From the NCBI GenBank assembly GCA_038851755.1, contig JAWCKR010000015.1, positions 1 through 35,025 of the forward strand: a DNA stretch of 35,025 nt. Reading direction: 5' to 3'. Origin of the DNA: Candidatus Hadarchaeales archaeon (lineage in GTDB: Archaea; Hadarchaeota; Hadarchaeia; Hadarchaeales; WYZ-LMO6). This document shows positions 1 through 25,795 of this stretch, piece by piece. The translations under genes and the position numbers were made by a program. Below the pieces are notes generated by a model that saw only the letters and a list, made by a program, of their open reading frames with translations, made no database searches and was not told the DNA's origin. Numbering within the stretch: position 1 is the stretch's first letter; the number at the start of each line of letters is the position of its first letter.

Positions 1-858
1 CGGAAGGGACGGGGATAACATCCTGACCCTCCACGGTTCCCTGGTCTGATGGGGTCTCGTCCTCGGTCTGGGGCTCTAGGTTTTCCTGAATTCCGGTACC
101 TTGGTTCTGGTCCTCTTGGGTCCCCTCGTTTTCGACAACTCCTCCGTTCTCGAGGCTTTCTCCTACAACTTCTTGATTCTCTGCCGGAATCGGACTTTCA
201 TTCTCTGGGGGGGCCTCCTGCACCCCTTCTTCGTTTTCAGCTGCACCCCCAGTCTCGAAACCATTTTCCTGTACCTCCTGGATCTGGCCCAGCCCCTCCG
301 AGTTTTCAGGGGTCTCCGTCCACCCCTCGGCCGCCCCTTCGCTCGGGGAGGGAGGGTTCTCGCCGGTACTCCCGGCAGGGCTCACCTCGAGCTGGCCCTC
401 CGCCGAACCCTCAGCACCCTGGGCCTCCGCCCCAGGCAGGAGGGAGGGCTCGTTCTCCTCCCAGGTCAGGAGGCTCCACCTCACCACCCTCCCCGCGTCG
501 AAGATCTCTGAGACGAAGAACCCCTGCGTGCACCCTGGGAGGAGCCTCACCACGCCCCCCGCGTTCTCCGTGTTCTCGAAGAGGGGATAGGGGAGGGGAG
601 GGAGGGGGGAGGGGGGAGAAGCGGCCACGGGGAAAACGGGAACGGAGGAGGTGAGGAGGAAGAGGGTGAGGAGGAGGGAGAGACTTCTCCTCAGCGCCTC
701 CCAGGCGCAGAGGGGGGGTGCGGAGGCGACCCGCCCCTCAAAAAAGAGGTCGCCTCCGCACGAGGGTTGGGGATAAAGGGGCTTCGGACGGGAGGGGGGC
801 TGCGGAGCGGAGTAGCTGGGCTCGACCTCGACAGCGGAGCCTTCAACAATCTCGCCAC
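1..858 (-). CDS. N-terminus of a paralog of the giant surface protein (partial, runs off the left edge)
   Basis: Manual translation is open from GTG 858 (after an in-frame TGA and GAGGGTGA) to position 1: ...ALRRSLSLLLTLFLLTSSVPVFPVAA (signal-like)...PYPLFENTENAGGVVRLLPGCTQGFFVSEIF...WEENEPSL. This matches the giant protein's PYPLFENTENAGGVIRLLPGYTRGSFVSEII...WEREEPSL and is followed by an acidic EN-rich linker. The true start is uncertain. Confidence 0.85.
718..761. repeat. Perfect 14-bp inverted repeat (hairpin) with 16-nt loop
   Basis: GTGCGGAGGCGACC (718-731) / GGTCGCCTCCGCAC (748-761). The loop contains T6 on the minus strand. Confidence 0.9.
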
Positions 859-879
859 TCACCCTCGGCCCCCCTCCCG

Positions 880-1055
880 ATTAAAATCTGCTTTAACTTG
901 CTTTAAAAATTTTTCTATTAAAGTAAAAATAAAATTATACTGCTTCTGGAACGGCGGAAAAAGAGGAAAACTCCGGATCCTCCCACCCCATAATGTATAA
1001 ATAGAATTTAACTAAAATAGAAATCTTTTTATACCCAAATACAATTTGAATTAAA
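880..1055. promoter_or_regulatory. AT-rich divergent promoter region
   Basis: Sharp AT-rich island in GC-rich DNA. TTTTTATA at ~1026-1033 lies ~30 nt before ATG 1059. TTTAAA-like boxes on the minus strand lie upstream of 858. Confidence 0.65.
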
Positions 1056-1058
1056 GTG

Positions 1059-1208
1059 ATGAGGGAAATACCCGTACACCCGGCACCCACCCTGTGCGGG
1101 AAATGCGGCCTCTTCTACCTCTATCCCAAGCGGTTGGACTACGAACACAACCCCTGCCCCAGGTGCGATCACCCGAACAACGGACACCGCAAGGGAGGTG
1201 AGAGGTGA
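1059..1208 (+). CDS. 49-aa zinc-finger microprotein (CxxC...CPxC)
   Basis: MREIPVHPAPTLCGKCGLFYLYPKRLDYEHNPCPRCDHPNNGHRKGGER*. TATA-like box ~30 nt upstream; TGATG overlap with the next ORF. Confidence 0.7.
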   Translation: MREIPVHPAPTLCGKCGLFYLYPKRLDYEHNPCPRCDHPNNGHRKGGER

Positions 1209-1342
1209 TGGAAACCCTGTCGGCGGCGCTGAGGAAGGTGGGTCCCTGCGGCATGTACCTGAGGGATCCCTTCTGCCCCAGCACCCCTTCGGCCAAGGCC
1301 GCCGGGCTGTGCCACCGCTGCCCCTTCGCCAAGAGGTCGTGA
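1208..1342 (+). CDS. 44-aa Cys-rich microprotein
   Basis: METLSAALRKVGPCGMYLRDPFCPSTPSAKAAGLCHRCPFAKRS*. Preceded by a GGAGGTGAGAGGTG SD-like sequence and coupled to the upstream ORF by TGATG. Confidence 0.6.
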   Translation: METLSAALRKVGPCGMYLRDPFCPSTPSAKAAGLCHRCPFAKRS

Positions 1343-1485
1343 GCCCTGTTCTCCCGGGTAACGACCCACACTTCCTGGGTCCAGGCAGGGGGGCATGGCT
1401 CCACACCCTAACCTCCTTCGCATATCACGAGCACAGATACAACTAAATTTTTATATAAGAAAAATTTAATTACAACGGTGAAAGG

Positions 1486-1881
1486 TTGGAGGTCCTGAAA
1501 GACCAACCCATCAAGCTCGAGATAGAGGGGGAGGAATGGGAAACCCTCGATGAGAAAAAGGCCTCAGAGGTCAGCGAGGCCCTCGCGGACCCCATCAGGA
1601 GGTGGATCTACCAGGAACTCGGAAAGGGGTCCCTCAGGCAGGCGGAGCTGGCCAAGAAGGCCAGCCAGGCCCTGGGCAAGAAGATCACGAACGTGCTCAT
1701 CCGCTACCACCTGAACAAGCTCGCCTCCGCCGGGCTCGTGAGGTTCGAGAAGGACGAGGCCCGTCCGAGGGTGAAGGTGGTCCACAGGAGCTGCGAGGTG
1801 AGGATCCAGGTGAGGCCCTTCTCCCCGCCCTCCGCGGGGCTGGAGGAGGTGCTCTCCGGGGCCCTCAGGAGGAGAGGCTGA
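1486..1881 (+). CDS. ArsR-like winged helix-turn-helix regulator
   Basis: ALADPIRRWIYQEL...LRQAELAK...RYHLNKLASAGLV. TTTATATAA ~1450-1458 upstream. Confidence 0.8.
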   Translation: MEVLKDQPIKLEIEGEEWETLDEKKASEVSEALADPIRRWIYQELGKGSLRQAELAKKASQALGKKITNVLIRYHLNKLASAGLVRFEKDEARPRVKVVHRSCEVRIQVRPFSPPSAGLEEVLSGALRRRG

Positions 1882-2687
1882 TGCCCATCCTCTCGGTGAT
1901 GGGGACCAAGGGAGGGGTGGGGAAGAGCACCGTGGCCATGGGGATCTCGGCCTGGATCAGCAGGCTCCAGAAGGACATGGTCCTGCTGGTGGACGGGGAC
2001 ACCCACGTGAGGACGGTGGAGCTGAAGATGTGTCCTGGGGCGGACGTGACCCTCTCCCAGGTGCTGGAGGGGAAGCACTCCCTGGCAGACGCCATCTACT
2101 CCTGCGCCCTCAAGGCAGGGGGAAGGCCCCTCTTCCCCAGGCTGGCCATCCTCCCGGCCGGAGGAAGGTTTCTCCCCCCGGGGAGCAGGGACATCGTGGG
2201 GTTCGTGGAGCACACGGTGGGGAGGTTCGAGCGCATGCTCTCCACCCTCAGGAAGAGGTTCTCCTACATCATCGTGGACACGCCGGCCTCCGTGGGGTTC
2301 GAGCACCTCATCCTGACCGCCATAGCCGACGCCCTCCTCTTCGTGGTGAACCCCGACCTGGACTCCATCCTCTCCTCGAAGATGACGGCGGAGGGTCTGA
2401 AGGGGCTGCTGGGAATTCAGGCGGTGGGGGTGGTGGTGAACCGGGCGCCCAGGGGGAGCTCGGTGGAGGAGTGGGTCCTGCGGGCCGGGGACATAGCGCC
2501 CGTCCTGGGGGTGATAGAGGACGACGAGCTGGTGGACGACGCCTTCAGGAGGGACCTGCCGGTGGTGGCCCTCTACCCCGAAGCCCCTTCCAGCCAGGGG
2601 CTGAAGAGGGTGGCGGAGGAGATCCTGAAGCTGAAGATCGAGCCCACCAGGCTCCTCCCCAAGCTGGAGCTGGCGAGGGGCTCGTAG
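1881..2687 (+). CDS. MinD/ParA-family ATPase
   Basis: Real start is ATG 1881 (TGATG overlap). MPILSVMGTKGGVGKST deviant Walker A, LLVDGD, IIVDTPA, VVVNR. The 1602-1880 extension in the ORF track is a shadow of the upstream gene. Confidence 0.9.
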   Translation: MPILSVMGTKGGVGKSTVAMGISAWISRLQKDMVLLVDGDTHVRTVELKMCPGADVTLSQVLEGKHSLADAIYSCALKAGGRPLFPRLAILPAGGRFLPPGSRDIVGFVEHTVGRFERMLSTLRKRFSYIIVDTPASVGFEHLILTAIADALLFVVNPDLDSILSSKMTAEGLKGLLGIQAVGVVVNRAPRGSSVEEWVLRAGDIAPVLGVIEDDELVDDAFRRDLPVVALYPEAPSSQGLKRVAEEILKLKIEPTRLLPKLELARGS

Positions 2688-2716
2688 GAAGGCTCATATT
2701 TCTGGGGCAGAAGTAG

Positions 2717-2854
2717 CTCTTCGACGAGAGGCCCGGGTGTACCCTCTCCACCAGCGTCCTCCACAACGTGCTGGAGAACCTGGAGAAGATGAGCATCCTG
2801 AGGGACTACACTTTCCTGGATCCCGTCTACCGGGAGGCCGCCAAACTGCTCTAA
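2717..2854 (+). pseudogene. C-terminal remnant of an archaeal ATPase (COG1672-like winged-helix tail)
   Basis: LFDERPGCTLSTSVLHNVLENLEKMSILRDYTFLDPVYREAAKLL* follows an in-frame TAG. From memory, it resembles the ..LEKMSI..Y.FLDP.Y.EA ending of archaeal ATP-binding proteins. Confidence 0.5.
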
Positions 2855-2905
2855 TCAACACTCCCCACTACGCGAGCAGGTTGCCCCCAAGCTGGAGGCC
2901 CCCCC

Positions 2906-2957
2906 AAACCGGTCTAATATGGACCAGTTTTTTATAAAAACCGGTCTAATATAGACT
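2906..2957 (+). promoter_or_regulatory. Two operator-like sites flanking a TATA box
   Basis: AAACCGGTCTAATAT at 2906 and 2938 (32 bp apart), each part of an imperfect GTC(T)A-N-(T)RGAC palindrome. TTTATAAAAA lies between them. Confidence 0.75.
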
Positions 2958-2962
2958 GAAAG

Positions 2963-4219
2963 ATGAAGAGAAGGGAAGACTTCAAGCACGTCATCGCCGA
3001 GTGGCTCCAGCAGGGAATCCCGGAGGTCAAGGGAAGGGAAACCCTCCTGCCCCTGGATTCCAGCCTCGTCGTGGCCGTAACGGGCGCCAGGAGGAGTGGC
3101 AAAACCTGTCTCCTCTTCCTGACCATGAGGAGGATCGTGGAAGAAGGCAGGGCCAGTCCCGATGAAATCCTCTACCTCGACTTCGAGCACGCCAGGTTGA
3201 AGGGGATAACGGCGGCCGACCTGGACGAAATGCTGGTGGGCTTCTACGAACTCACGGGCAAAAGACCCAAGTACCTCTTCCTCGACGAAATCCAGGGAGT
3301 GAAGGACTACGGGGGCTGGCTCAGGAAGAGGCTCGACGCCAGGGTCTACCTCTCGGGTTCTTCCTCCGCCCTGACCCCCAAGAGGATTGCCGGGGAGCTG
3401 AGGGGAAGGTGCGTGAACTACGAAGTCCATCCGCTGTCCTTCAGGGAATACCTCTCCTTCCTGGGCCACAGCCCTCCAAAGCCCGAGGTCCTCCTCCGCA
3501 GGGAGGAAAGGGGCAAACTCCTCTCCCTGCTGAGGGACTACCTCCAGTATGGTGCCTATCCCGCGGTTGCGCTGGAAGGGGACAAGAAGCGCGTGCTGAA
3601 GGCCTATTTCGACTCCGTGGTAGTCAGGGACCTGGGCGGGACACCCCTGGCCGAAACCCTCGCCCTCTACCTCACGGCGAACTATGCCCAACTGACGACC
3701 CTGAACAAGATCTACAACTACCTCCGGTCGCTGGGTTTTCAAGTGGGCAAGGAGAAGGCCATGGAGCTCCTGGAGAGGGCGAGGGAGACCTACTTCGCGT
3801 TCACGGTCGAACAGTTCAGGAAGAGCGAGAGGGAAAGGAAGATGAACCCCAAAAAGCTCTACATCGTGGATACCGGCTATCCCACCGCGCTGGGGTACGA
3901 GTTCTCGGTTTCGAGGGCCATGGAAAACGCCGTTTACCTGGAACTCCTGAGGAGAGGGAAGGGGGAGGTGTACTACTGGAAAGAGTACGGGAAGAGCACC
4001 GGAGCGGAGGTCGACTTCGTGGTGAGCAGGGACTTCAGGGCGGAGGAGCTGATTCAGGTAACCTATGGGGAGGAGGAAATCCGGGAAAGGGAGGTGAGGG
4101 CTCTGGAAAAGGCGAAGGAGGAACTTGAACCCGAGAAGCTCAGGATCCTGACATGGGACTACAGAGGGGAAATAGAAGGGATGGAGGCCGTGCCACTATG
4201 GTATTGGTTGCTGACATGA
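2963..4219 (+). CDS. AAA+ ATPase, COG1373 family (AAA_14 + DUF4143)
   Basis: GARRSGKT, FLDEIQ, SGSSS, GGYP-like GAYPAV, KKLYIVDTG, MENAVYLEL, EVDFV, LIQV. Confidence 0.93.
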   Translation: MKRREDFKHVIAEWLQQGIPEVKGRETLLPLDSSLVVAVTGARRSGKTCLLFLTMRRIVEEGRASPDEILYLDFEHARLKGITAADLDEMLVGFYELTGKRPKYLFLDEIQGVKDYGGWLRKRLDARVYLSGSSSALTPKRIAGELRGRCVNYEVHPLSFREYLSFLGHSPPKPEVLLRREERGKLLSLLRDYLQYGAYPAVALEGDKKRVLKAYFDSVVVRDLGGTPLAETLALYLTANYAQLTTLNKIYNYLRSLGFQVGKEKAMELLERARETYFAFTVEQFRKSERERKMNPKKLYIVDTGYPTALGYEFSVSRAMENAVYLELLRRGKGEVYYWKEYGKSTGAEVDFVVSRDFRAEELIQVTYGEEEIREREVRALEKAKEELEPEKLRILTWDYRGEIEGMEAVPLWYWLLT

Positions 4220-4343
4220 GCGGTTCGCGAGTCTGTGGTGGGAAAACCGAACCATCGGTCCACTTCCGATCTCTCGATTCCAGTTCTCGGGCGAAAGATC
4301 TCACGATAGCTGGAACTCCCTACCTGCTCTAAGGTGCGGAGCT

Positions 4344-7300
4344 TCATTCAGAGCCCTCATCCTTCCTCCCCATCAGCTTCTTCAGCTTCTCTAGGGTCTC
4401 CCTGGCCTCGGGGGCCCTCGCCGTCTCCGTTCCCTCCCTCCTCTCGGGCAGGGGTCTGGCCTTCATTTTGGCTGCCAGCTCCTCGGGACGGACGTGTGGC
4501 TCCACGGGCTTGGCCACCCTGGCCAGCCTGGCGAGGACCTCGGCGGGCGGGGGTGCTCCCGGCGGGGCCCTGCCCGCCCTGAGGAGGGACTGGAGGGCCT
4601 CCTCGGGCGCCGGAATGGGTGAGGGCCTGATGGGTTTCACGGTGAGGGGCTCGGCCTTGGGGAGCTCCTCGAAGGCCGGGCGGGCGGGCTCCAGCTTCCT
4701 CAGGGGAACGGCCGGGACCACCTTCTCCGGCAGCTTCACCTTCGGGCGCACCAGGCTGGCCAGCGGGACCTTCGGGAGGATGGGGCGGAAGCGCCAGAGG
4801 TAGACGAAGTACCCGGCCGCCCCCACCGCCATCAGGCTCCCCGCCAGCAGGAGGAGCAGGAGGGGCGGCCAGGAGAAGGGCGGGGGCAAGCCCGGGGCCT
4901 TCCTTCCGTACAGGGCCAGGGCCCTCGGGTAGAAGGTGAGCTCGGTCGAGAACACCAGGGCACCTTCCTCCCTCCCTTCCAGCTTCAGGGGCGCCTCCCT
5001 CCAGCCCTCGCCGTCGAAGGCGAGGAGCCTGAGCCCTCCCTCCTTCACTCCTTTCTCCCTCATCCAGTCCTCCGAGACCTGGAGCTCCACCCTCGCTCCC
5101 TCCACCGTCCGGGAGGAGGTGCTGAGGCCCAGCAGGGCCCCTCCGTACACCCGCTCCAGGGAAGGCCAGAGGGCTCCCCTCACCTCCTCCCCCTTCACCT
5201 CCAGCAGGCCCAGCGAGACCACCCTCTGCTGCTCGCGGAAGACGATACCGACCTTCCTCACGAACCAGGAGGGCGGGTGGAAGACGAACTCCGCCTCTCC
5301 TCCCGAAGGCACGTTCTCCACCACCTCCCTCAGGGAGGGAGTGAGGGTGAGGAAGCTCCCCACCGCGAAGGAGGAGGGGAGGCCCGCCCCGTTCACCGCC
5401 CTCACCCTCCAGAAGTACCTCCCCTCCTCCAGTCCCTCGAGCTGGAGGGAGGAGGCACCGAGCTCCCTCGCCGTCGCCGGTGAGCCGAAGTCGGGATCGT
5501 TGTCCACCATCACCTCGTAGGTTATCCCGGAGAGGTCGGAAACGGGGGACCAGTACAGGCGGGGCTGGGTGGTCCCCACCATCTCACCCTCCCCGGGCGA
5601 GAGCAGGACGGGCACCGGTGGCGGTGTGAGGTCCACCCCGCAGGAGGCCTTGGCCCTGAGGGGTGCGGGCTCCGTGAGGTTGTCGTTGTCCCTGGCGACC
5701 GTGCAGAACTCGTAGAACCCTTCTCCCTCGGGGGCGGTGAAGCTCCAGGACCAGGACTCCCTCTCCGCCGCCGCGAACTCCCTCCACTCTCCCCATCTCG
5801 AGTTGTCGGCGGAGTGCCTGTACCAGAGGGTCAGGGACACCACGTATCCGTCGTTGTCCCAGGCGGTGGCGCTCACGACGAAGGGTAACGAGATCCTCCA
5901 GTACGGACGGAGCTCCTGCACGGAGGAGGAGGGCGGGAAGAGCAACAGGGCCTTCACCCTCAGGAGGAAGGAAGCGGCGTGCCTCCTTCCCTCCGCGTCC
6001 TCTCCCACCACCGCGAAGGAGTAGGAGCCCTCGGGCGTTCCCCTCCCCACGCTGAGGTTGAGGGAGGAAGTGAAGGGAGGCACGCCCTCCCTGACGGAGA
6101 ACTCCGCCAGCACAGTGGCGGGCAGGTTCTCCGCCTCCAGCGTCACGGGGAGGGCGTAACCTCCGGAGGGCTCCACCCTCACCTGCACGGTAAGGCTCCC
6201 TCCCTCCGTCACCTCTCCCAGGCTCGGGCTGACCGAGAGGCTGAAGTCCCTCGGTGGGGGCGGTGGTGGGGGTGGGGGCGGGGGAGGTGGCGGAGGCTGG
6301 GGAGTTTCCACCCTGCCCTGGCGGCCCTCCAGCGTGAACCAACCCGCACCGGCCCTGACCCAGATCTGGAACTCCTCCAGCCCCCTCCAGCCCGCTGGGA
6401 ACCCGGCCTGCACCGTCCACCCCTCTGCCTTCCTCCATCCAGCCTGCGTGAAGAGGGACGAACTCCATCCCTCCACCAGCCGCCAACGCGCCGCCTCGCT
6501 TCCCGCCGAACCTAACCATCCTTCTACCGCTGACCATGAGGCCTCCGCCCAAATCCAGTTCTGCCAGGCCTCCGCCGCGGTCCAGAGGCCTCTGGCCGAA
6601 ACCGTCTCCTGCCAGCTCTCCAGCACCCTCCAGCCCGGAGGTGTGACCGTTCCTTCCGTCCACCCCTCCAAGCTTTCCCACCCGGCAACTCCAGCCAGCG
6701 CGCCCGACCACTCCTCCAGCGCGGACCAAGCGAAGGGAACCGGGAGCGAGGACCACCAGGAGTCCGAAACCACCCAGCCAGCCACAGTCCATGTTCCTCC
6801 CAGCCAGCCCTCCAGGCCTTCCCACCCCGCCACCGTTGCCGTTCCTCCCGTCCAGGAATCGAGCCTGTACCACAGCATGGGGGCCTCCACCGCCGTCTGC
6901 CAGCTCTCGAGGGAGAACCAAGCCTCCCTGAGCGTCACGGTGAAGACCCCAGAAACGTTCTCGTTCCCGGCCCCGTCCACCACCTTCACCCTCCAGTAGT
7001 AGGTTCCGGCGGGGAGGAGGTTCTCGCAGGTGTGGTAATTCTCCCCTATTCCGGCCTTGTGGTAGGAGAAGGGTGGGGAGAAGGTGTTTTCGTTGTCCAC
7101 CGTCAGCTCGTAGGTCACCCCTGAGAGGTCCCCAACGCTCGTCCAGCGGAAGGTCAGGCCTACTCTTGAAACCGTGCTCCCGTTCTCCGGCTCCAGCAGA
7201 GAGGGGGCAGGCGGGGGAACGGGGTCGTAGCCGCAGGAGGTGTCCGGGACGGAGGGTGGAGACTCGTGGTTGCCCGAGTTGTCCCAGGCCCTGGAGTAGA

Positions 7301-19300: not shown

Positions 19301-21083
19301 TTCCGGCGGTAGCAGGCGAGACCACCGACATCAGCCTCGAGTCGGCCGTTCCGGCCCAAGTCACGCTGATGCCCGGACCGTACCGTATACTCATCGCCGT
19401 GTCGGGTGCTCTGGAATCCTTCTTGGGAACGCTCGAGGCCTGGATGACCGTGCCCCCGCCGGTAACGTTTGTGATTCTCCTCAGGGTAAAATTCACCCTG
19501 CTGGCGGCTCCCCCGGCATTGACCATTATCACGATCCTCCCGATCACCGCGGTTCTGCCGGAGCCAACGGGGTTGAAGAAGGAGGCGAACACATCATTCG
19601 CCGTGGCGGTTCCTGACACCGGACCGATAGTGAGCAGGTAGGAGTTCTCTACCCCAGGTGTTCCGCTATCGCTCTCGTAGAGGTTTTCATAGACGCCATC
19701 ATCGCTCTGGGCCCCTGAAAGCCCGCTCGTCCCACCCTCGTAAACTGTCTCTCCCTTCACGTAGACGATAGCGTAGACGGAGAAGCCCGAACTCCTGGCC
19801 CTGAAATGTAATGAGGCTCCATCCTCACCTTCCTTCCAGGTGGGAAGCTCCTCCCATTCCCTCTCGCCGTAGTGCCAGAGCGCCAGCCTGCCAGACCCTC
19901 TTCCCTCCAGCCAGCTCTTCGGGACGGAGAACCCTATCCCAGCCTCTTCAAGGAGTTCTCTCTGCAGGGAAGTGGAGAGATCGAGGTACGAGTAGACTTG
20001 AACCTCCCCCACGTAGACCGCCTCTTCTCCCGAGCCCACACGGTTGGCGGGAGGCACACCCTGCGGGGGGGAATCGAGGGCTTCCGCCGTTACCTCGAAA
20101 TCCCTCGCCTGTCCCCTCATCAAGAGCTCGATATACCTGACGGGGAGGTTTTCGAACCTCGCCAGCGCTCTTCTGTTCGCCCGGCCGAAGTTGGCCCTGG
20201 CCTTCCCGGAGACCCAACGGGCCCACCTCTCCCAGTTCTCCGTCCCAGCCTCCCATTCCTCCAGGGTAACCCAGCCCGAAGAGAGGTTCTCCCGTTGGAA
20301 ATCCTCCCCCACGTTCCAAGAGTCTAGAGGGTAGAAGGACCCGCCTGCCTGGTGGAGATCCTCCCCCACACTCCAAGAGTCAAGAAGAGAGAAAGACTCG
20401 CCCACCCCTCCACCGTCCTCTCCTAACTCCTCCCATCCCTGGGGAGGCTTGGCCCTGAGCCCGATTCCCCAAGCCTTCGGACCGGTCTCCCCGCTCAGCC
20501 CTGGGTCCTCGCTCCCCAACAGGACCCTGACCTGGAGGTACCGGAAGGGAGGGAGAAAGGAGAGGTCGGCGGGAGGTGAGGTGAAGAGGGTGCCGGGGGT
20601 ACCGTCGGGACCCATCCACTCGCTCCAGCTCTCCCCGTCGGTGCTCACCCTCACCTGCAGGTCCACCCAGGAGCGAAGGACCTGTGGCTCCAAGCCCGCA
20701 GCACCCTCCCCTGACGGTTGGTGACCTCCCGTATCCTCCCCAAGCAGGTTTTCTGGAGTTCCCTCCAGCTCCGGCTCCACCCACCCTTCACCCGTCTGAA
20801 CTACCAGGGAAGGCTCTTCCCTCTCCCACCACAGCTCCCATTCACCCTCCCCGAGTTCGATGATCTCGGAGACGAAGGAACCCCGCGTGTAACCCGGAAG
20901 GAGCCTGATGACCCCTCCCGCGTTCTCCGTGTTCTCGAACAGCGGGTAGGGGGAGGTCTCCTCCTGAGCCCTCACGGGAACGAAAGGCACCTGCGAGGAG
21001 AGGAGGAGGAGAGAAAGGAGGAGGGAAAAGGCCCTCCGGAGCCCGAGGGAGAGGCGGGTGAGGCGAGAGGGACCTTTCTCCAT
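4344..21083 (-). CDS. Giant 5579-aa membrane-anchored surface protein with Trp-rich 16-aa repeats, Ig/FN3-like domains and two PGF-pre-PGF-like domains
   Basis: Uninterrupted ORF with SD GGAGGAGTGAGAGG-ATG and an N-terminal signal peptide. PGF-pre-PGF-like domain at ~19765-20200 (FSVPKSW...GFSVYAI); five ~170-aa repeats; many P.L.SP.N...YYWRV.A modules; poly-Pro at ~6253-6297; second PGF-pre-PGF-like domain at ~4910-5320; TM helix at ~4795-4865; basic Pro-rich cytoplasmic tail. Confidence 0.95.
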   Translation of the reverse strand: MEKGPSRLTRLSLGLRRAFSLLLSLLLLSSQVPFVPVRAQEETSPYPLFENTENAGGVIRLLPGYTRGSFVSEIIELGEGEWELWWEREEPSLVVQTGEGWVEPELEGTPENLLGEDTGGHQPSGEGAAGLEPQVLRSWVDLQVRVSTDGESWSEWMGPDGTPGTLFTSPPADLSFLPPFRYLQVRVLLGSEDPGLSGETGPKAWGIGLRAKPPQGWEELGEDGGGVGESFSLLDSWSVGEDLHQAGGSFYPLDSWNVGEDFQRENLSSGWVTLEEWEAGTENWERWARWVSGKARANFGRANRRALARFENLPVRYIELLMRGQARDFEVTAEALDSPPQGVPPANRVGSGEEAVYVGEVQVYSYLDLSTSLQRELLEEAGIGFSVPKSWLEGRGSGRLALWHYGEREWEELPTWKEGEDGASLHFRARSSGFSVYAIVYVKGETVYEGGTSGLSGAQSDDGVYENLYESDSGTPGVENSYLLTIGPVSGTATANDVFASFFNPVGSGRTAVIGRIVIMVNAGGAASRVNFTLRRITNVTGGGTVIQASSVPKKDSRAPDTAMSIRYGPGISVTWAGTADSRLMSVVSPATAGTHQGHQEVVFQQENLVLREGEGIALYQETAGNTNHRIYLLVEWKEVPTAPTPMGGYILTFPRRSGTNWAAGYVHYSFYNPSTSGRTAIIRRVRISIDCDGGAVYTSNFALRRFTGAPTAGTQIAAANVPKKHTGSADTAMDLRHALGTAPGFTWSGTADSRLMLVISPGAADQQYAKKELIFEPNEPIILQPGEGVALYNEAASDSNHLIFMTVEWDEKTFTPSSQGEYLLAFPRVELGTAPGANYVYYSFYNPSGSGRTAVVKRIGVRIIADAAALYIPFTVRRFTGAPSAGTAIAAANVPKKHTGSPDTAMDLRYNLGVTPGFTWSGTADSRLLSVVTPGAAGQYVNREIVFGGDDEKLILQPGEGIAFYSEAAGDIDHHFSAYIEWAEVSTAPSPKGEYLLSIGPINGSTTMPYTYASILNPAGSGKYAIVKRIEARVSAAAAATYIPMSVRRITAASGGTQIAAANVPKKHTGSTDTAMDIRHTGPTVTFAGATESRILGITSEGAVGQQHGWQSLVFVPNEPLVLKPGEGIALYQESGTGNTGHRVILLVEWAETTTAPSAERDYVLSIGPVTGTATAGDNFASFFNPADSNNVAVIKKMMVMVVATTTATYVPITVRRISSATGATSIPPDNVPRKHTDAPAPALVARYGNATVIPVGEATSRLVSVTSPGAAGAALTPQITGVRLLTFEITGPLLLLPGEGIVLYQEGAGSTAHVHRLFAEWREIPKAYRVDVRHDITDIPSGTGHILEIKYYTAGDSEPISLYLYNFSTGQWDNLGNLQVGGSAGSPLFFSYNLTGTSYLSGGNVYARYIQRDNDSIQTSLMVDFCRVVVYGPGRPQLASPKNNENLNDNTPAFAWTASDNHTGYRLVISPYSNFSENVYDNSNIPPALTSLEIENQLPDNVYYWKVAATGAGYENWSDNVWKFTVDTHPPTAPPLVSPENNTYLDLSEAQVELKWNPSTDALTGVDNYRIYVDEGLVEVDNTVTSYSHTFSLGEHTWRVGAVDYAGNENSSPSRVLRICTWRVLDSWTENLSIPPSDWFWLESWLGGVSSPVAGWSFLDSWSCVLPTKISWAELETWTEVLEGGASWRSLETWTGAGVVQVGWQTMEVWSETLRAPGNWWTVDEWMGAMSVSVSWWTLEVWESALHFQASWRSIEEWAVRVEGRGSWASLEQWTEVLGTTAAWQMQESWASTVGAPSSWLPVEEWTGKVSAPAHWRALENWSVELLAQAGWRALESWSGVVWTAISWQTLDAWTTELQTQASWQPVDAWSVVAEGGVSWQPLEVWTWTVEGRVAWQPLDAWMQGILTGAFWQVLDTWAGSLQIAVAWYMVEGWVDSVGSPVSWQHLEAWTSTVQSLGAWRSLETFTGEILTFVSWRELDSCAGGVGTTASWQILEGWVENIQPTTLWVMVESWTIVVRAAGSWQIVEGWGEAVQTVAVWLFLESWTESIQTQLLPGSPKLYRPENNSIFPAYEDVTFEWENGANAENHRIEVDNDEDWTNGCVDNVWVVGENSWVKSGGYAPGTYRWRVWAVNAAGENVSENVWYFTVVCVWRVLESWMGELQTTAVWSAVDTWTGEALTTAGWRAVESWDGSAWTAGAWEELDTCTGGAGTVALWRTVESWTVSARAQASWQPTDSWMCAVSTQASWQKLEAWTVEVSPPVAWTRLDSWMGAVQTQAEWMALESWTCVVLARASWWILEDWADTLQTPASWRLIETWAGSVQAQAGWQYLDTWMGMLETQALWLFLDSLAGEIGGPAQWLALDVFTVEVTVSIQWSRVDSWTWTVRVQAEWCPLDSWTEQIVATAWWWVVETFTTLLGTSASWREIDSYWATVQVLVLWREVEAWTETAQAQVLWRVQEVWWAILPAPSSWHPLEDRWASLSSTAEWRVVEGWEENLGCMPSSPAPLLPENNAFTTPTPTFQWDNTSPLENFRLEVDNDSDFSSPLDNLLFPAATRSWTKPSPGYAPATYYWRVWALNAFGENCSVVRTFTVVTGPPGAPSLLSPADGENVPLEVTFTWIRGSTADNHRIEIDNDPDFSSPVENVWRSPPDDNWYSTVFQDYGTYYWRVWAVNAAGENVSETRTVNVVAVWRELEGWGAGAFTLPSGWITLDSWMSGVQASAWWRELEQWTEGVGMVAGWFALEEFSGEMGTLVEWRWLDSRMAGGTSTPVWQEVDLWASSAGAAAEWRVVEAWASLAGSPAVWSALEGWSVGLSSVAEWRGVEGWACSLASQVEWRILDSASVSVLVPVGWWSLEEWSGEARTSAGWQALDGWAEGVRATARWESLESFAAVVGGPASWSPAEVWVCTLQSPAGWSAADSWSGTVEAQALWRATEGWSTTLEAVAGWEPMEAWVTELRTSVLWSALEGWEEGVSTLAGWSALEGWWWTDQSPASWVALETWMCVFPAPASWVALETWEGSAHSPAGWWVLDTLTVALQALGSWQPLDTLAGALETVAFWSMMESWSLLAGARAGWREVEGWAGEVQSSATWSLLEGWSVVSQAPAGWGGIETWEGYVVTLASWSQVEGWMARSQAPALWSVQESWTVTTVAPSLWEEVEKWTLVAEARASWCWMEGWTGGAWASAGWRELDSCTGGVLAAASWWTVEAWVVTLQTYASWWCVETWVGTASARALWRAAETWTVMLTASALWRPLETWSLSLSSPARWELLEGWMGTGSAVVLWTQLEAWASVLSAPLLAPTLLSPPSGTNTNDTTPTLSWENQAPADNFELQVDNEPTFSEPVIYWKTGLTVTSHELENQLQDNLYYWRVRLFRGGENSPWSEVWTFRVDTVRPSAPTLLSPANGENLNDNTPTFRWYSVPENSLPVGYWIQIDDEPTLSEPYLFSFGWVLDNVFELPLENALQDGVYYWRVKARDNAGNLSLTWSQIWSFRVDTVRPSAPVPLSPVGGAWTSITPTLTWQAVEENSKPVLYRVWVCESSTFDPELYNVYDSGWVQENWWTTPELLEALNLEGKNFYWRVCARDNAGNLGENCSTQNFRVDNVSPSAVQLLFPENDSYVQAGLVTLKWSSATDGGSGVAGYQVKVYAGDSPVYENSVTENQVTVVLEPGTYRWRVWALDGVGNTGPWSENYFNVAGWESLDSWSSSAGTVQAWVGVEGWVATAAAAVGWSVLEGWADEAWARVGWSPLEGWSGAAGAAAVWSVVEAWMCTAGAPAGWSAAEFWTLEIATSAQWSAVEGWAGAAGASVSWREVEGWTGTMVTTVEWRTIETWMETVGTEAHWFEAEAWAAGLGMQVVWRTADSWTGAIGAVATWQPIEGWTGELFTPVSWQSLEGWTSSLETWVSWQQQEFWSCTASTTVCWFGTESWSVTAGTVAFWLSLDFMTGGARAQAGWQELESRMSTVSASAEWRPVEAWAEAMLTPAGWSPLEGWTGAFGTAVAWCSVEAWTGSLGVITSWRELDSCTAAAQTLIAWQPVEGWAGVVSTPISWYGLESWTGTLSTLVGWRAVEAWEGTVRTMAGWQPVEVWQCQVQVPSAWRLLDSLMGTALPLVSWQSLDSSSVTVSSPVSWQQLDSWTGVFLGPASWRPVEDWSCSVQAPSSWQQVESWTGAVSTPVQWSWLDSWAGKVQAGVSWWEMEGWTGSLQTRAGWEEVEGWEGGILTPASWSTTDSWTVTCLAPALWREVEGWVEVLRAAAGWSGAESWTCLVGAGASWRELEGWQVSLGMVEGWREVEEWTGWATAPACWFLLDSRQGRVITLGAPVLLSPENDAWLNDNTPTLDWSDVEGTEVYRLWVDGDENFGSPLEFLLPMSQYTFGTELENGIYYWKVRAEAGGESSPWSEVWQFTVGYDVTPPTEPIPVSPENEVLLEEPDGRPTFRWLTSQDEESDRVTYRLEVHRDPSFSSPVYVKGGIEENWHETENVLPQDNYWWRVVARDWAGNENVSRAFLLRLLVPPVSQLQSLPQYWYRTSPITLSATASDADGHVENVELWFRWSPDNSSWGSWILYDYLTSPPYTFYFEPPSGPGHYQFYSRAWDNSGNHESPPSVPDTSCGYDPVPPPAPSLLEPENGSTVSRVGLTFRWTSVGDLSGVTYELTVDNENTFSPPFSYHKAGIGENYHTCENLLPAGTYYWRVKVVDGAGNENVSGVFTVTLREAWFSLESWQTAVEAPMLWYRLDSWTGGTATVAGWEGLEGWLGGTWTVAGWVVSDSWWSSLPVPFAWSALEEWSGALAGVAGWESLEGWTEGTVTPPGWRVLESWQETVSARGLWTAAEAWQNWIWAEASWSAVEGWLGSAGSEAARWRLVEGWSSSLFTQAGWRKAEGWTVQAGFPAGWRGLEEFQIWVRAGAGWFTLEGRQGRVETPQPPPPPPPPPPPPPPPRDFSLSVSPSLGEVTEGGSLTVQVRVEPSGGYALPVTLEAENLPATVLAEFSVREGVPPFTSSLNLSVGRGTPEGSYSFAVVGEDAEGRRHAASFLLRVKALLLFPPSSSVQELRPYWRISLPFVVSATAWDNDGYVVSLTLWYRHSADNSRWGEWREFAAAERESWSWSFTAPEGEGFYEFCTVARDNDNLTEPAPLRAKASCGVDLTPPPVPVLLSPGEGEMVGTTQPRLYWSPVSDLSGITYEVMVDNDPDFGSPATARELGASSLQLEGLEEGRYFWRVRAVNGAGLPSSFAVGSFLTLTPSLREVVENVPSGGEAEFVFHPPSWFVRKVGIVFREQQRVVSLGLLEVKGEEVRGALWPSLERVYGGALLGLSTSSRTVEGARVELQVSEDWMREKGVKEGGLRLLAFDGEGWREAPLKLEGREEGALVFSTELTFYPRALALYGRKAPGLPPPFSWPPLLLLLLAGSLMAVGAAGYFVYLWRFRPILPKVPLASLVRPKVKLPEKVVPAVPLRKLEPARPAFEELPKAEPLTVKPIRPSPIPAPEEALQSLLRAGRAPPGAPPPAEVLARLARVAKPVEPHVRPEELAAKMKARPLPERREGTETARAPEARETLEKLKKLMGRKDEGSE
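6305..16217 (-). repeat. Five tracts of 48-nt/16-aa coding repeats W-x2-[LV]-[ED]-[SGTA]-W-x9
   Basis: Counted by eye: ~14920-16217 (27 units), ~13570-14621 (22), ~11180-13001 (38). Estimated from length: ~8120-9981 (~39), ~6305-6920 (~13). Tracts are separated by Ig-like modules. Confidence 0.92.
17110..19641 (-). repeat. Five tandem ~170-aa domains in the giant protein
   Basis: Each reads Y[LIV]L..P...S[FI].NP..S...A[VI]...RR...[NS]VP[KR]K...SRL...L..GEG..[LF]Y.E...W.E. Near-identical DNA blocks at ~17851, ~18361 and ~18880. Confidence 0.9.
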
Positions 21084-21645: not shown

Positions 21646-21677
21646 CCCTTTTCCCCTTCCCCCCCCTTCCCCTGAGG

Positions 21678-22325: not shown

Positions 22326-22373
22326 GCCAAGGGAGTCTCTTCTCCGAAGCGGGCCCGAGAAAATGGGCGAAAA

Positions 22374-22457: not shown

Positions 22458-22502
22458 AAGGTGGGGGCAAAAGGGAAAGCCGAGGGAAGGGACCCTCACA
22501 GC

Positions 22503-23336
22503 TCAGGAGGAGATGACCACCCGGTAGCTGAAGGTGGAGGGCTTGTGCCTTATCCTTATGAAGTCTCCCACCCCCAAGCTGCCGGCTCGCACCTGGGCGC
22601 TGACATCCAGCGTCAGGGAGCGACCCGGAACCAGGGGCTCGGTCCCAGGAACATATGAGGTTACCGGACCGTTCCCGTTCTCGGCCCTCCACTCCCAATC
22701 CTCCGTCTGGATGTTCTCCCCCGACTGAACGGTGAGGAGCACCTTCTGGTCAGAGGTGAGGCGGGCGGTGAAGGACATCTCTGGGAAGTAGACCCCCCTG
22801 ACAGTAGCGGTCATGCTCATTCCCCCTCCCGGCCTGGGGGTGGTGAAAGATTTTATCTCTCCCGTGAGTTCCTTCCCGTCGTACCTGAGGAGGGCTTGGA
22901 ACTCATACGTCCTGCCGGGGGAAAGGGTGGTGAGGCGGTAAAAGCAGCTTGGTCCGGTGAAACCCTGGTACCAGGGAACGTAGTTCCAGATCCCTCCCGC
23001 TTCCCTCCACCTGAAGCACACGTCCACCCGCTGGTAATCCCCATAGGTGAGGGTGGCTGTCAGGAGGGCCGAAGTTCCAGTCACCTCGGCCGCTGTCCCC
23101 GTCTGGATGGAGGGCGGGGAGAGGTTCTCTCCCTCCCTCTCCCCTCCGCGAGAGTAAGCCCAGTAGGCACCCCCCAAGAGAGCCAAAACAAGGAGAATCA
23201 GTACCGCCCATTTGGCATCCTTCGCAGGGGGAGTCTGGGCGGTTGGCGGAACTGAAGCCACTACCTCTTTTCCTTTCCCTCTCTTAAAAATCTTCTCAAG
23301 GCTGGGGGCCTGAACCTCCAGCACTGCCAAGTTCAT
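22503..23336 (-). CDS. Single-pass membrane protein with a fibronectin type III-like domain
   Basis: TM WAVLILLVLALLGGAYWAY, then T..A.EVTGTSALLTA...LTTLSPGRTYEFQA...GEIKSFTT (FN3-like) and a further beta domain. Start is ATG 23336 or ~23384, not 23513. Confidence 0.8.
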   Translation of the reverse strand: MNLAVLEVQAPSLEKIFKRGKGKEVVASVPPTAQTPPAKDAKWAVLILLVLALLGGAYWAYSRGGEREGENLSPPSIQTGTAAEVTGTSALLTATLTYGDYQRVDVCFRWREAGGIWNYVPWYQGFTGPSCFYRLTTLSPGRTYEFQALLRYDGKELTGEIKSFTTPRPGGGMSMTATVRGVYFPEMSFTARLTSDQKVLLTVQSGENIQTEDWEWRAENGNGPVTSYVPGTEPLVPGRSLTLDVSAQVRAGSLGVGDFIRIRHKPSTFSYRVVISS

Positions 23337-23442
23337 GATTCCTGGCCATAATTCCTTGTCTAATTTTTGAAATTTCTTCATCATAATAATAGTAGTAGAG
23401 AAAGGGATACGCTTATAAGGGGTGGCGGAGGAGTTTGAAGTG

Positions 23443-24231
23443 ATGAGGTGCCCCCGCTGTGGGTATGAGTGGAAACCCAAGGTCCCCAACCCCAAGGAGT
23501 GCCCGAGGTGCAAGGTGAGGCTGGATTACCAGCCCTCCACTCTTCCGCAGGGGGCGCCCCAAAAAATAAAGGAGGTGAGGGAAGGAATGACGAGGAAATT
23601 ACCCTGGGTGGCGGCTGCGGTGGTCATAGTAGTAGCAGTAGGACTGGGAAGCTGGCTCTGGCTTCAGCCTGCGGCGGTGACAACTGGATGGAACGCCACG
23701 GTGAGCGTTAGCGGGCCCCTCAGCGGGCCGATAGCGGTGGGTCTCTTGCAGGGATCTTATGGCGACTTTGGCATAGAAAACATCTTCATCATGGTTCACG
23801 CCAACAAAAGCCAATGGAACGGCAAAGCCCCTGAGGAGTGGGGCACGACATATGGTTCAGACAGCGATAACTACTACGCGGTAATCAGTGAGAACGGTGC
23901 CACCGTGAACATACCCTACGAAAGGAGATTCGATATCCTGGTGGTTTACAAAATCAGGGGAGATAACGTAGCTTATATGAGGTTCGAGAACACCTACGAG
24001 TACATCAACATTACGGGAAACTTCTCTAAGACGGAAAACAGGCTAGCAGGCAGTGACTGGGAATCCTCTTGTCCCTGGCACACCGAAAACGTTACATACG
24101 GAGCAGTAGGAAAAGATTATCCAAGTTCGTGGATGAGGATTTACAACTTCATCGACAATGGTGGCAACGGCTTCTTCTTGCCAGCTGGCGGTTCCATCAA
24201 CATCAACCTGACCATCTACACCTGGAAGTAA
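23443..24231 (+). CDS. Exported/membrane protein, subunit A, with N-terminal Zn ribbon and possible internal start at 23588
   Basis: CPRC..W.P...PKECPRC, then MTRKLPWVAAAVVIVVAVGLG signal/TM and a beta-rich ectodomain with several NxS/T sequons. TTATAAG at 23413 lies 30 nt before ATG 23443. Confidence 0.85.
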   Translation: MRCPRCGYEWKPKVPNPKECPRCKVRLDYQPSTLPQGAPQKIKEVREGMTRKLPWVAAAVVIVVAVGLGSWLWLQPAAVTTGWNATVSVSGPLSGPIAVGLLQGSYGDFGIENIFIMVHANKSQWNGKAPEEWGTTYGSDSDNYYAVISENGATVNIPYERRFDILVVYKIRGDNVAYMRFENTYEYINITGNFSKTENRLAGSDWESSCPWHTENVTYGAVGKDYPSSWMRIYNFIDNGGNGFFLPAGGSININLTIYTWK

Positions 24232-24248
24232 GCCCGACCACCGCAACC

Positions 24249-24277
24249 TTTTTCTTTTTTCCTTCTTTTTTTCCTTC
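24249..24277 (+). terminator. Oligo-T archaeal terminator
   Basis: TTTTTCTTTTTTCCTTCTTTTTTTCC ~17 nt after TAA 24231. Confidence 0.65.
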
Positions 24278-24278
24278 T

Positions 24279-24689
24279 GTGAGTTACCCCAAGCTGGCAG
24301 CCCTCTCCATCCTTTTGCTCCTCTCCCTTCTCCTCTTTTTCGCCCTTCCTTCCCCTTACCCAAGGGATACAAGGGACTGGAGTGGAGCCTTCCTAGGTCA
24401 TCAGGTCCTGCTGGACCGGAGGATCTGGCCCCTCACCCTGATGGGCAGCAGCATGTATCCCTCCCTGACCGAGAACGACCTCCTCCTGTGCGTGGGGGAG
24501 GATCCTGCGAGCCTCAGGGTGGGGGACATCGTCGTGTACCGGTATGAAGGGACCCTGGTGGCCCACCGGATTGTAAGGTTTTGGGAAAACGGGGTGGTCA
24601 CGAAGGGGGATGCGCCGGAGGCGTGGCAGGAGCACAGGGTGGGGTGGGAGGACATCCTGGGGAGGGTGATGGGCGTCCTCCCAAGGTAA
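24279..24689 (+). CDS. Signal peptidase I, S26 (ER-type/SipW-like Ser-His)
   Basis: GTG 24279 start MSYPKLAALSILLLL (TM); GSSMYPSL (Ser), VGDIVVY, AHRIV (His), TKGD. Confidence 0.88.
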   Translation: MSYPKLAALSILLLLSLLLFFALPSPYPRDTRDWSGAFLGHQVLLDRRIWPLTLMGSSMYPSLTENDLLLCVGEDPASLRVGDIVVYRYEGTLVAHRIVRFWENGVVTKGDAPEAWQEHRVGWEDILGRVMGVLPR

Positions 24690-24711
24690 TAATACCCCCC
24701 TCCGAGAGGGG

Positions 24712-25371
24712 ATGATGGCTGGGGAGCTGAAGTGGGGGATAGACAGGTACTGGCGCCTGAAGAGGAGGCTCAAGCAGCTCTCCCCCCTCCTCCTCGTGGT
24801 CCTCGTCCTCGTACCCCTGCTGCTGCTCCTTCCCCGCTCCTCCTCCCCCCCTCCTCCCACCGACAACTGGCCCAAAGCGGTGGTGAGGGGACCCACCTTC
24901 ACCATAGCGGGGAAGAGATCCACCCAACCCCTCGCCCTCCCCAAGGGGGGGCTCACGGGGATAGAGAACATCTACCTCATGAAGCACGAAGGTTACTCGC
25001 CCCACGAAAACCTGGCCGATAACTCCCTCAGGTGGGTGGGCGTGCTCTCCTACAGCGGGCAAGTATTGACCGTGAGGGCCAACGAGGTTTTCGATCTAGT
25101 GGTGGCCGTGAGGGCTAAGGCCGACAAAGAAAACCTGGCCTACGCCAGCAAGGAGTACGTGAGGGTCTGGCTCGGGACCAGCGGGGCCTTCACCATCCCC
25201 TTCGGCTACGCCCCGGACTGGAGGGAATACGTGTTCTACAGCGAGGGGTACGGGACTGCCGACGGCTACCTGAGGATGAACGTGGTCTGGGACAACGACG
25301 GGGAGGGCTATGTCCTCCTCCCAGGGCAGGAGCTCTGGATAGACAACCTCATCCTAGAGCTCTGGGGGTGA
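24712..25371 (+). CDS. Exported/membrane protein, subunit B, paralog of the 23443-24231 ectodomain
   Basis: TM followed by motifs shared with subunit A: GIENIYLMKH vs GIENIFIMVH, FDLVV vs FDILV, ENLAY vs DNVAY, DNDGEGYVL vs DNGGNGFFL, terminal WG vs WK. Confidence 0.85.
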   Translation: MMAGELKWGIDRYWRLKRRLKQLSPLLLVVLVLVPLLLLLPRSSSPPPPTDNWPKAVVRGPTFTIAGKRSTQPLALPKGGLTGIENIYLMKHEGYSPHENLADNSLRWVGVLSYSGQVLTVRANEVFDLVVAVRAKADKENLAYASKEYVRVWLGTSGAFTIPFGYAPDWREYVFYSEGYGTADGYLRMNVVWDNDGEGYVLLPGQELWIDNLILELWG

Positions 25372-25375
25372 GGGG

Positions 25376-25795
25376 ATGAGGAAAGAGACCGTCCTGAACC
25401 TGTTGCTCCTCCTCCTGCTGGGGGTGGTCACCTTCCTCTCCATCCTCCACCTCTCCAGGCGCTCCCCGGAGCTGGAGAACCGCACGGAGTGGTTCGGAGG
25501 GTACACGGCCTTCCTGGACCGGGAGCTCCACCTGCTCCGGGCGGAGGACTGGGGTATGGGGAGGACGGTGGGGGAGAACGACACGGTGATCTGGGTAAAA
25601 GTGGACCTCTCCGTCCCCAAGGTAGGGGACCTCATCCTCTACCGGGAGCCGGGAACGGGAAGGCTGTTAGTTCACAGGGTGGTGGAGAGAGTGGAAAACT
25701 CCTTCAGGACCAAGGGGGACGCCCTCTCCTCCCCCGACAACTACCTGGTGGAGGAGCTGGAGGGCCTAGTACTAGGGATCATCTACTCTCGATGA
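25376..25795 (+). CDS. S26 signal-peptidase-like protein lacking the catalytic Ser
   Basis: TM, VGDLILY, VHRVV and TKGD are retained, but the GSSMYP box reads DWGMGR. Confidence 0.82.
   Translation: MRKETVLNLLLLLLLGVVTFLSILHLSRRSPELENRTEWFGGYTAFLDRELHLLRAEDWGMGRTVGENDTVIWVKVDLSVPKVGDLILYREPGTGRLLVHRVVERVENSFRTKGDALSSPDNYLVEELEGLVLGIIYSR

Follow-up and report, generated by a model that had tools for sequence, protein, structure and literature searches.

In N-glycosylation, the acceptor sequon N-X-S/T and the WWDYG motif of the enzyme are both regarded as universal. WWDYG (or WWDXG) has been described in all oligosaccharyltransferases (PMC2952790; PMC11407970); it forms the Ser/Thr-binding pocket together with a DK or an MI motif (PMC8342417), and mutations in it abolish N-glycosylation by canonical enzymes (PMC2952790). 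The exclusion of Pro from the +1 position is separate from this pocket and comes about because the sequon β-pairs with the TIXE/SVSE strand in external loop 5 (EL5), while Pro at +3 is also disfavoured in canonical sequons (PMC8342417). Campylobacter PglB, a single-subunit enzyme of the STT3 family, uses the extended sequon D/E-X-N-X-S/T (PMC8342417; PMC4894442). Here, we consider a 35,025-nucleotide stretch of DNA from a Candidatus Hadarchaeales archaeon (contig JAWCKR010000015.1 of assembly GCA_038851755.1, positions 1 to 35,025, forward strand; “the window”), in which the Asn residues of exported proteins are very often directly preceded by Asp or Glu ([DE]N below). We think it rather probable that Hadarchaeales have replaced N-X-S/T as their N-glycosylation sequon by [D/E]-N without Pro at +1, and that the latter is read by a remodelled AglB, the STT3-family enzyme of these archaea.

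The original prediction, made from the letters of the window, had stated that Asn residues in exported proteins sit overwhelmingly in such dipeptides, mostly without Ser/Thr at +2, and all the strings quoted in its support are present. A giant exported protein of 5579 aa (4344..21083, − strand), with an N-terminal signal, a C-terminal hydrophobic segment and matches to Big_13, fn3 and Big_7, includes SENVYDNSN, IENQLPDNVY and YENWSDNVW; 96 of its 168 Asn (57%) are in [DE]N, against 19.6 expected and a maximum of 35 in 2000 within-protein shuffles. The excess of the acid is found at −1 only, where D occurs 37 times (5.7 expected) and E 59 times (13.9 expected), versus 14 and 10 times, respectively, at +1 (again, 5.7 and 13.9 expected). 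At one edge of the window and running past it, 2..862 (− strand) specifies the N-terminal part of a paralogue of the giant, i.e., a signal/anchor segment followed by an acidic linker, and 12 of the 13 Asn in this fragment are in [DE]N. The linker (137 aa) contains the nine quoted EN motifs amongst a total of 10 Asn (2.5 expected; binomial p 3e-5). It is probably disordered, and as a disordered linker has no fold to demand [DE]N, the excess there would not be fold-stabilising. The word “overwhelmingly” is too strong for the average, [DE]N representing 41% of all exported Asn, but the enrichment is 3.5- to 6-fold and absent from cytoplasmic proteins.

The source genome (1.25 Mb, 62% GC, 93% complete; G000) consists of 26 contigs, of which the window is C15. 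Its 1117 genes were called with a custom codon-usage caller (80–92% coverage per contig), and proteins were sorted by Kyte-Doolittle hydrophobicity: 835 without a hydrophobic 19-mer were taken as cytoplasmic, and 125 with their first segment in residues 1–90 and few segments in all as exported or anchored (henceforth, exported). Expected [DE]N numbers were calculated protein by protein and are compared as observed/expected (O/E). The same pipeline was applied to 200–673 kb each of five other Hadarchaeales genomes (G002, G005, G012, G013 and G019) and of an outgroup (G041).

Genome-wide, 654 of the 1585 Asn in exported proteins are in [DE]N (188.3 expected, O/E 3.47), as compared to 596 of the 4597 in cytoplasmic proteins (636.8 expected, O/E 0.94; Fisher p 7e-117), so that the contrast between secreted and cytoplasmic proteins which had been put forward as a check is borne out. 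Amongst proteins with at least five Asn, 72 of 77 exported ones exceed their own expectation (median O/E 3.04), versus 191 of 421 cytoplasmic ones (median 0.90). The effect does not come from the repetitive giants, as exported proteins shorter than 1500 aa have [DE]N at 357 of 1035 Asn (O/E 2.97). Up to 105 sites occur in a single protein, and in a giant encoded in contig C12, [DE]N accounts for 78% of the Asn; when all proteins are ranked by binomial p, the top of the list is almost exclusively occupied by proteins with a signal peptide, a class-III pilin-type leader or an N-terminal anchor. Asn is scarce overall (2.0%) with 3.4% in exported and 1.8% in cytoplasmic proteins, and [DE]N makes up nearly all of the difference. 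Before Q, S, T, G, D, K and H, the frequency of [DE] in exported proteins is near or below expectation in all cases ([DE]Q, O/E 0.84). At the DNA level, the hexamer GANAAY occurs 654 times in frame 0 of the exported genes against 183.6 expected from codon shuffles, while its numbers in frame 1 (12 vs. 14.4), frame 2 (67 vs. 61) and the reverse strand (125 vs. 121.8) are as expected; codon choice within the dipeptide is ordinary. The confinement of the excess to frame 0 means that the signal resides at the protein level and not at the DNA level. Neither composition nor repeats nor DNA-level motifs account for the enrichment. A set of 68 proteins with a single internal hydrophobic segment (O/E 0.85 on the N-side and 1.37 on the C-side) turned out to consist mostly of cytoplasmic false positives and was set aside as uninformative.

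The sequence flanks of exported Asn carry two signals only, the acid at −1 (O/E 3.83 for E and 2.80 for D) and a shortage of Pro at +1. Positions −2 (D 0.85, E 0.71) and +2 are flat, and acids directly after the Asn (N[DE]) score 0.80. An apparent enrichment of Trp/Tyr at +2/+3 disappeared under per-protein expectations, its source being the Trp-rich giants. In G000, Pro follows 7 of the 654 exported [DE]N (O/E 0.18), versus 68 of the 931 other exported Asn (O/E 1.37; Fisher p 8e-10), and 62 of the 596 cytoplasmic [DE]N (O/E 2.02). The exclusion is repeated in G002 (5 of 629 [DE]N versus 50 of 667 other Asn) and in G012 (1 of 101), and it would be expected of a peptide bound in the active site of an oligosaccharyltransferase. 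Gly at +1 of exported [DE]N is tolerated (51 of 654, O/E 0.87; in G002, 0.98). The original remark that most sites lack Ser/Thr at +2 holds, with 102 of the 654 exported [DE]N sites carrying one (O/E 1.10), and composition-corrected N-{P}-S/T scores 1.07 in exported and 1.05 in cytoplasmic proteins (1.07 and 1.01 in G002). As a positive control, the same counts were made on 150 kb of Haloferax volcanii pHV4, a sample of low power with 16 exported proteins only, which yielded N-X-S/T at 20 of 67 exported Asn (O/E 1.95; cytoplasmic, 1.01) and [DE]N at 6 of 67 (O/E 0.69).

Selection on these sites is further suggested by a comparison of orthologues in G000 and G002. In 32 exported pairs, the Asn is kept at 196 of 231 [DE]N and at 205 of 291 other positions (p 1e-4), an effect not seen in 182 cytoplasmic pairs (91 of 115 and 746 of 879, respectively). 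Where a conserved Asn lacks the acid in G000, G002 has one in 11 of 205 exported versus 8 of 746 cytoplasmic instances (p 5e-4). Co-conservation of the Asn and its preceding acid as a sequon unit (odds ratio ~15) was discarded as evidence, being equally strong in cytoplasmic proteins: joint loss that is equally correlated in both classes reflects local rate variation.

The genome of G000 includes one STT3-family gene (C13:33079-35463; 795 aa; Pfam STT3, PF02516, 52.6 bits against a cut-off of 24.5). PMT_2 matches that same gene only and YfhO matches nothing, which makes AglB the sole detectable GT-C protein glycosyltransferase. Inspection of its motifs, also suggested in the original prediction, revealed that WWDYG is replaced by EWSYG: in pairwise HMMER alignments with human STT3A and STT3B, “VAVEWSYGHLL” stands opposite “VMSWWDYGYQI” and “FDRE” opposite “YDNE”/“FDNE”. 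A profile of 20 members of the order agrees with this alignment and matches human STT3A with E 1e-23 and A. fulgidus AglB with 1e-4. Three acidic residues are invariant in these 20 enzymes, namely, D37 (“TSDSG”), D151 and E345 (“YASEM”). D37 would be the acid of the first DXD-type motif; E345 falls in the loop expected for the TIXE/SVSE Glu, with the HMM alignment setting the SVSE of STT3A a few residues further on and the loop being the least confident part of the structural model. That AlphaFold2 model (pLDDT 84.7, pTM 0.82) predicts an STT3-type fold, i.e., a multi-pass GT-C membrane domain and a C-terminal globular domain: in a Foldseek search of the PDB, the top 19 matches are all STT3, PglB or AglB (E 8e-18 to 4e-14, TM 0.45–0.66), and the next structure after these oligosaccharyltransferases is DPY19 (E 3e-9 vs. 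8e-18).

We recognised neither a DxxK (DK) nor an MxxI (MI) motif in Hadarchaeales AglB. At residues 588–596, ~65 residues after WSYG, “INGRRxDVQ” is extant in 50 of 52 distinct AglB sequences, and our guess is that it could be the equivalent of the DK motif. In 42 of the 52, “G.WEN” (residues 549–555) is found roughly at the place where STT3 has a glycosylated double sequon, which in STT3 and TACK/Asgard AglB reads DNXTZNX[T/S] (PMC8342417); should that alignment hold, it offers a lead that the conserved glycosite of AglB itself may have been converted to the new code. G000 specifies three GT2 dolichol-phosphate-type transferases. A complex predicted for AglB (20-row alignment), Mn and residues 205–250 of the EN-rich linker scored 0.02 against a mark of 0.32 in a run without controls, and counts neither for nor against binding.

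Compared with canonical AglB/STT3, the Hadarchaeales enzyme is likewise a single STT3-family GT-C protein, with STT3, PglB and AglB as its best structural matches, and it conserves the catalytic acids, has exported targets, goes with exclusion of Pro at +1 and is accompanied by GT2 transferases of the dolichol-phosphate type. It differs in having xWS[YFH]GH for WWDYG, no recognisable DK or MI motif, an acid selected at −1 and no corrected excess of Ser/Thr at +2, unlike Haloferax. The Campylobacter system resembles it by the upstream acid in the signal and the single-subunit enzyme, but PglB requires the acid at −2 along with Ser/Thr at +2 and has WWDYG, whereas Hadarchaeales have the acid at −1 and no constraint at +2. 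Glycosylation of Asn-2 in the S-layer protein of Halobacterium salinarum reportedly tolerates the loss of the +2 Ser; that is one site in a user of N-X-S/T, while the rule in Hadarchaeales is proteome-wide and order-wide, and we know of no rule for an acid at −1 in Halobacterium salinarum. The C-mannosyltransferase DPY19 illustrates an STT3-like GT-C fold that reads a different peptide motif, modifying Trp in W-x-x-W. The Hadarchaeales signal is on Asn, and the giant of the window has only 14 W-x-x-W pairs amongst its 397 Trp.

The change in AglB extends to the whole order. Our phylum set comprises 66 genomes, 65 of Hadarchaeales and G041 as the sole member outside the order. Of 40 relatives searched with the whole protein, 39 yielded an AglB, and [EQRP]WS[YFH]GH is present at all 29 loci that cover the motif, in five families of the order. 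In a species-level collection, 54 loci matched, nearly all from Hadarchaeota/Hadesarchaea/Hadarchaeales, and 48 have the motif, a scan with some circularity, since the motif was itself part of one of its two search patterns. Overall, the order has [EQRPH]WS[YFH]GH at the position of WWDYG. Amongst the best 150 representatives from 1.84 billion proteins, the closest 57 include 37 with xWS[YFH]GH, one with WWDYGH and 19 with neither (mostly fragments, some full-length with other forms), while 87 of the remaining 93 have WWD[FYW]GH. Near the Hadarchaeales clade, AglB-like metagenomic proteins (P0010, P0040, P0042, P0048, P0052 and P0057) carry EWAIGH, HWELGY, DWEIGY, DWYLGY, PWPVGY and HWEMGY instead of WWDYG. 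Such forms may point to yet other deviations from the canonical sequon. The AglB of G041 is canonical (“AWWDYGY”).

The enrichment has the same distribution. In G000, the exported and cytoplasmic O/E values differ by a factor of 3.71. In G002, from the same genus (56% GC), [DE]N accounts for 629 of 1296 exported (O/E 4.04) and 193 of 1489 cytoplasmic Asn (O/E 0.92), a ratio of ~4.4. The corresponding ratios are 2.16 in G005, from the same family (52% GC; 44 of 152 exported, 146 of 1053 cytoplasmic), 4.83 in G012 (family f5, 58% GC; 101 of 179 and 104 of 810), 1.92 in G013 (f2, 48% GC; 101 of 492 and 343 of 2945) and 1.77 in G019 (f4, 40% GC; 180 of 643 and 618 of 3612), so that the enrichment holds in relatives of 40–58% GC. 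In the outgroup G041 (44% GC; 178 of 1210 and 533 of 3957), the ratio is 1.15 (p 0.27). No single protein of G041 has a p below 8e-3, whereas G012, G013 and G019 include exported proteins with p of 5e-18 to 5e-6; G041 does show a mild N-X-S/T excess, 1.11 in exported versus 0.87 in cytoplasmic proteins. Enrichment of [DE]N and loss of WWDYG thus go together in six out of six sampled Hadarchaeales genomes, and neither occurs in G041; as the former are kin rather than independent and there is one phylum outgroup, this co-occurrence amounts to a consistent pattern and falls short of statistical proof. The [DE]N signal is specific to compartment and position, it is positively selected, and it goes hand in hand with the absence of the Ser/Thr-pocket motif from the sole candidate enzyme.

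These observations suggest the following scenario. As exported proteins leave the membrane on its outer side, the single AglB would there transfer a dolichol-phosphate-linked glycan to their Asn. Its pocket would have been remodelled from WWDYG to xWS[YFH]GH, with the conserved “GRR” at about the DK position, such that the +2 hydroxyl would go unread; an acidic side chain directly before the Asn would be needed instead, read most likely by a basic AglB residue or via the catalytic metal. With the catalytic core kept, the peptide would still pair with the EL5 strand, and Pro at +1 would still be rejected. An unconstrained +2 where its reader is lost, and a rejected Pro where core and EL5 are kept, fit the division of labour between the pocket and EL5. 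Selection would then have loaded surface proteins with [DE]N, the dipeptide that contains nearly all excess Asn. That the code was rewritten as [Asp/Glu]-Asn-{Pro} along this route, by a change of the pocket and re-population of the surface proteome, including the “WEN” of AglB itself, with relatives of the HWELGY and DWEIGY types possibly reading yet other codes, is in our estimation an even bet. The non-canonical N-glycosylation sequon of the original prediction is thus supported by the compartment statistics and the AglB motifs, and the sites would be expected to carry a glycan. In the literature, the coverage of which did not extend to subscription journals, we found no paper on a [D/E]-N sequon, an AglB without WWD or glycosylation in Hadarchaeota. 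We infer that STT3-type N-glycosylation operates here with a different acceptor code, and the glycosylation sites of Hadarchaeales are probably marked by a code unlike that of the rest of life.

Several points weigh against a [DE]N sequon read by AglB. The evidence for it is wholly statistical or by homology; the label “exported” stems from a crude hydrophobicity rule on custom gene calls, and the comparators are a single phylum outgroup genome and a small haloarchaeal sample. We identified no AglB residue that reads the −1 carboxylate, and a basic remodelled pocket (“GRR”) would lead one to expect the acid at +2, where there is no signal, and not at −1. Since mutations in WWDYG inactivate canonical enzymes, Hadarchaeales AglB could have another activity or none, and no GT4-type initiating transferase was detected in G000. 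Pro at +1 of [DE]N is not depleted in the genomes with the weaker signal (3 of 44 in G005, 6 of 101 in G013 and 6 of 180 in G019, all small counts), nor is Pro at +3 of exported [DE]N in G000 (52 of 654, O/E 1.36). Uncorrected, N-X-S/T is more frequent in exported (14.0%) than in cytoplasmic proteins (9.2%), and the canonical sequon may be used alongside [DE]N; “subunit A” of the window (see below) has six such sites. The loops of multi-pass proteins, oriented by the positive-inside rule, have [DE]N at 22 of 131 Asn outside and 8 of 109 inside in G000, and G019 agrees, but the trend is reversed in G013 and a similar small one is seen in the outgroup; the approach is too crude.

An alternative that we consider unlikely, though less so than the others, is that AglB has lost sequon reading altogether, accepting any accessible Asn, or is not involved, and that the −1 acid has a physical role, such as balancing charge around a glycan, binding cations, or keeping surface loops soluble or hydrated at high temperature. 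The Ser/Thr-pocket motif is indeed gone, no candidate reader of the acid has been identified, and the signal is strongest in the high-GC and probably most thermophilic G000, G002 and G012 and weaker at 40–52% GC. A physical role should nevertheless not be restricted to −1, while N[DE] is below expectation and −2 and +2 are flat; it would not bar Pro from +1 at [DE]N sites alone, and with the exported Asn surplus almost wholly within the dipeptide, the pair appears to be the selected unit. Somewhat less likely still, [DE]N could mark another Asn-directed process at the cell surface that does not depend on AglB, i.e., enzymatic cross-linking or isopeptide formation, Asn hydroxylation or cleavage by an Asn-specific peptidase. 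Cross-linking had been raised, next to a metal-binding code, as a fall-back in the original prediction, and we found nothing in favour of either. The substrate of transglutaminases is Gln, and [DE]Q shows no enrichment; the [DE]N excess follows the AglB variant, and there is no candidate enzyme for the other processes. As many as 105 sites per protein and nine within a linker of 137 aa fit decoration better than cross-links or cleavage, and exclusion of Pro from +1 is a known mark of oligosaccharyltransferase binding (PMC8342417).

The notion that the −1 acid keeps Asn from deamidating, or the backbone from breaking, spontaneously in hot springs, under a selection that would be stronger outside the cell for want of repair and turnover, strikes us as very improbable. 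Asn is scarce in G000, as in thermophiles, and the high-GC hot-spring genomes have the strongest signal, but the Asn content of exported proteins, far from being lower, is roughly double that of cytoplasmic ones, and the enrichment continues in relatives of 40–48% GC. Asn-Gly is the most labile context for deamidation, the rate of which is little affected by the residue preceding the Asn. Asn-Gly is not avoided at exported [DE]N, and protection from deamidation would leave the co-occurring change in AglB unexplained. As to whether the effect might be artefactual, arising from composition, repeats, gene calling or the sorting of proteins, genes were called and labelled as exported by simple custom scripts, the giants are repetitive, and exported proteins differ in composition. 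Expectations were, however, set per protein, within-protein shuffles never came near the observed counts, nearly all exported proteins are individually above expectation, the effect survives dropping proteins longer than 1500 aa, and the same pipeline yields none in G041 or Haloferax pHV4; scarcely any likelihood is left for this explanation.

In the window itself, the giant is not uniform. Five repeats of ~170 aa, corresponding to residues ~401–1400 (16883..19883, − strand), had been said to be poorer in the dipeptide, and only 6 of their 37 Asn are indeed in [DE]N. The local GC content of this block is ~0.60, versus 0.65–0.67 elsewhere in the gene, and the stretch “AANVPKKHTGS” is kept in the five repeats. 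The block may be a later acquisition that has yet to adopt the local code, or its fold may bury the Asn. Residues ~1600–5000 (4344–16300, − strand) consist of Trp-rich tandem repeats with a period of ~16 (“W..LE.W”; Trp spacings of 6 and 10), for which no Pfam family was matched. Trp makes up as much as 13% of a 200-aa block, and several of the Trp-rich blocks are devoid of Asn. The giant of contig C12 starts with the same repeat.

The other exported proteins of the window, most of which match no Pfam family, are clustered at 22503–25795, where genes for an FN3-like anchored protein, two related “subunit” proteins and two S24/S26-like peptidases are found together, a layout we take to be reminiscent of signal-peptidase-linked fibre or pilus operons. 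The membrane-anchored “FN3 protein” (22503..23513, − strand; no Pfam match) has [DE]N at three of five Asn beyond its hydrophobic segment. “Subunit A” (23422..24231, + strand) combines a cytoplasmic Cys4 zinc-ribbon-like N-terminus with one hydrophobic segment and an extracellular domain; it includes IENI, SDNY, SENG, GDNV, FENT and TENR, and 8 of its 18 extracellular Asn are in [DE]N, while the one Asn of its cytoplasmic part is not. Given the six N-X-S/T sites counted above, there is thus at least one exported protein in which sequons of canonical appearance are common locally. The S24/S26-like peptidase (24069..24689, + strand; Pfam Peptidase_S24, 23.9 bits), the true start of which is probably internal, has both of its two Asn in [DE]N. 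“Subunit B” (24712..25371, + strand), exported and related to subunit A, carries HENL, ADNS, KENL and IDNL, with [DE]N at seven of nine Asn (0.9 expected), and the small exported protein that follows (25376..25795, + strand; no Pfam match), the second “S26” protein of the original prediction, at all four Asn beyond its signal segment.

Cytoplasmic proteins of the window have [DE]N at 0 of 2, 1 of 6, 3 of 14, 2 of 13 and 0 of 3 Asn; the first two counts are those of two ATPases, ParA/MinD-like and AAA_14/DUF4143 (1602..4219, + strand), which serve as internal negative controls. Elsewhere in the window, the GC content drops to 0.475 at 26001–28000 and to 0.53 at 30001–32000, as compared to ~0.61 for the contig. 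AAA-type ATPase genes (26863–28179 and 29981–31087) lie within these low-GC stretches, which are possibly foreign DNA.

A natural lineage in which both N-X-S/T and WWDYG are swapped would, if confirmed, matter because of the universality ascribed to them. The sequon would then be evolvable, and Hadarchaeales would provide a paired natural experiment, with the pocket of the enzyme on one side and the proteome-wide sequon on the other. Even if the sites were not glycosylated, a dipeptide rule this strong, compartment-specific and proteome-wide would still want an explanation. How an oligosaccharyltransferase selects its Asn, a long-standing question, could be put to a direct test that needs a single recombinant protein and two peptides, and a very short, orthogonal acceptor tag along with a thermostable single-subunit enzyme would be at hand for glyco-engineering. 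For Hadarchaeota, a widespread phylum of the subsurface and of hot springs, it would mean that prediction of glycosylation sites based on the canonical sequon fails.

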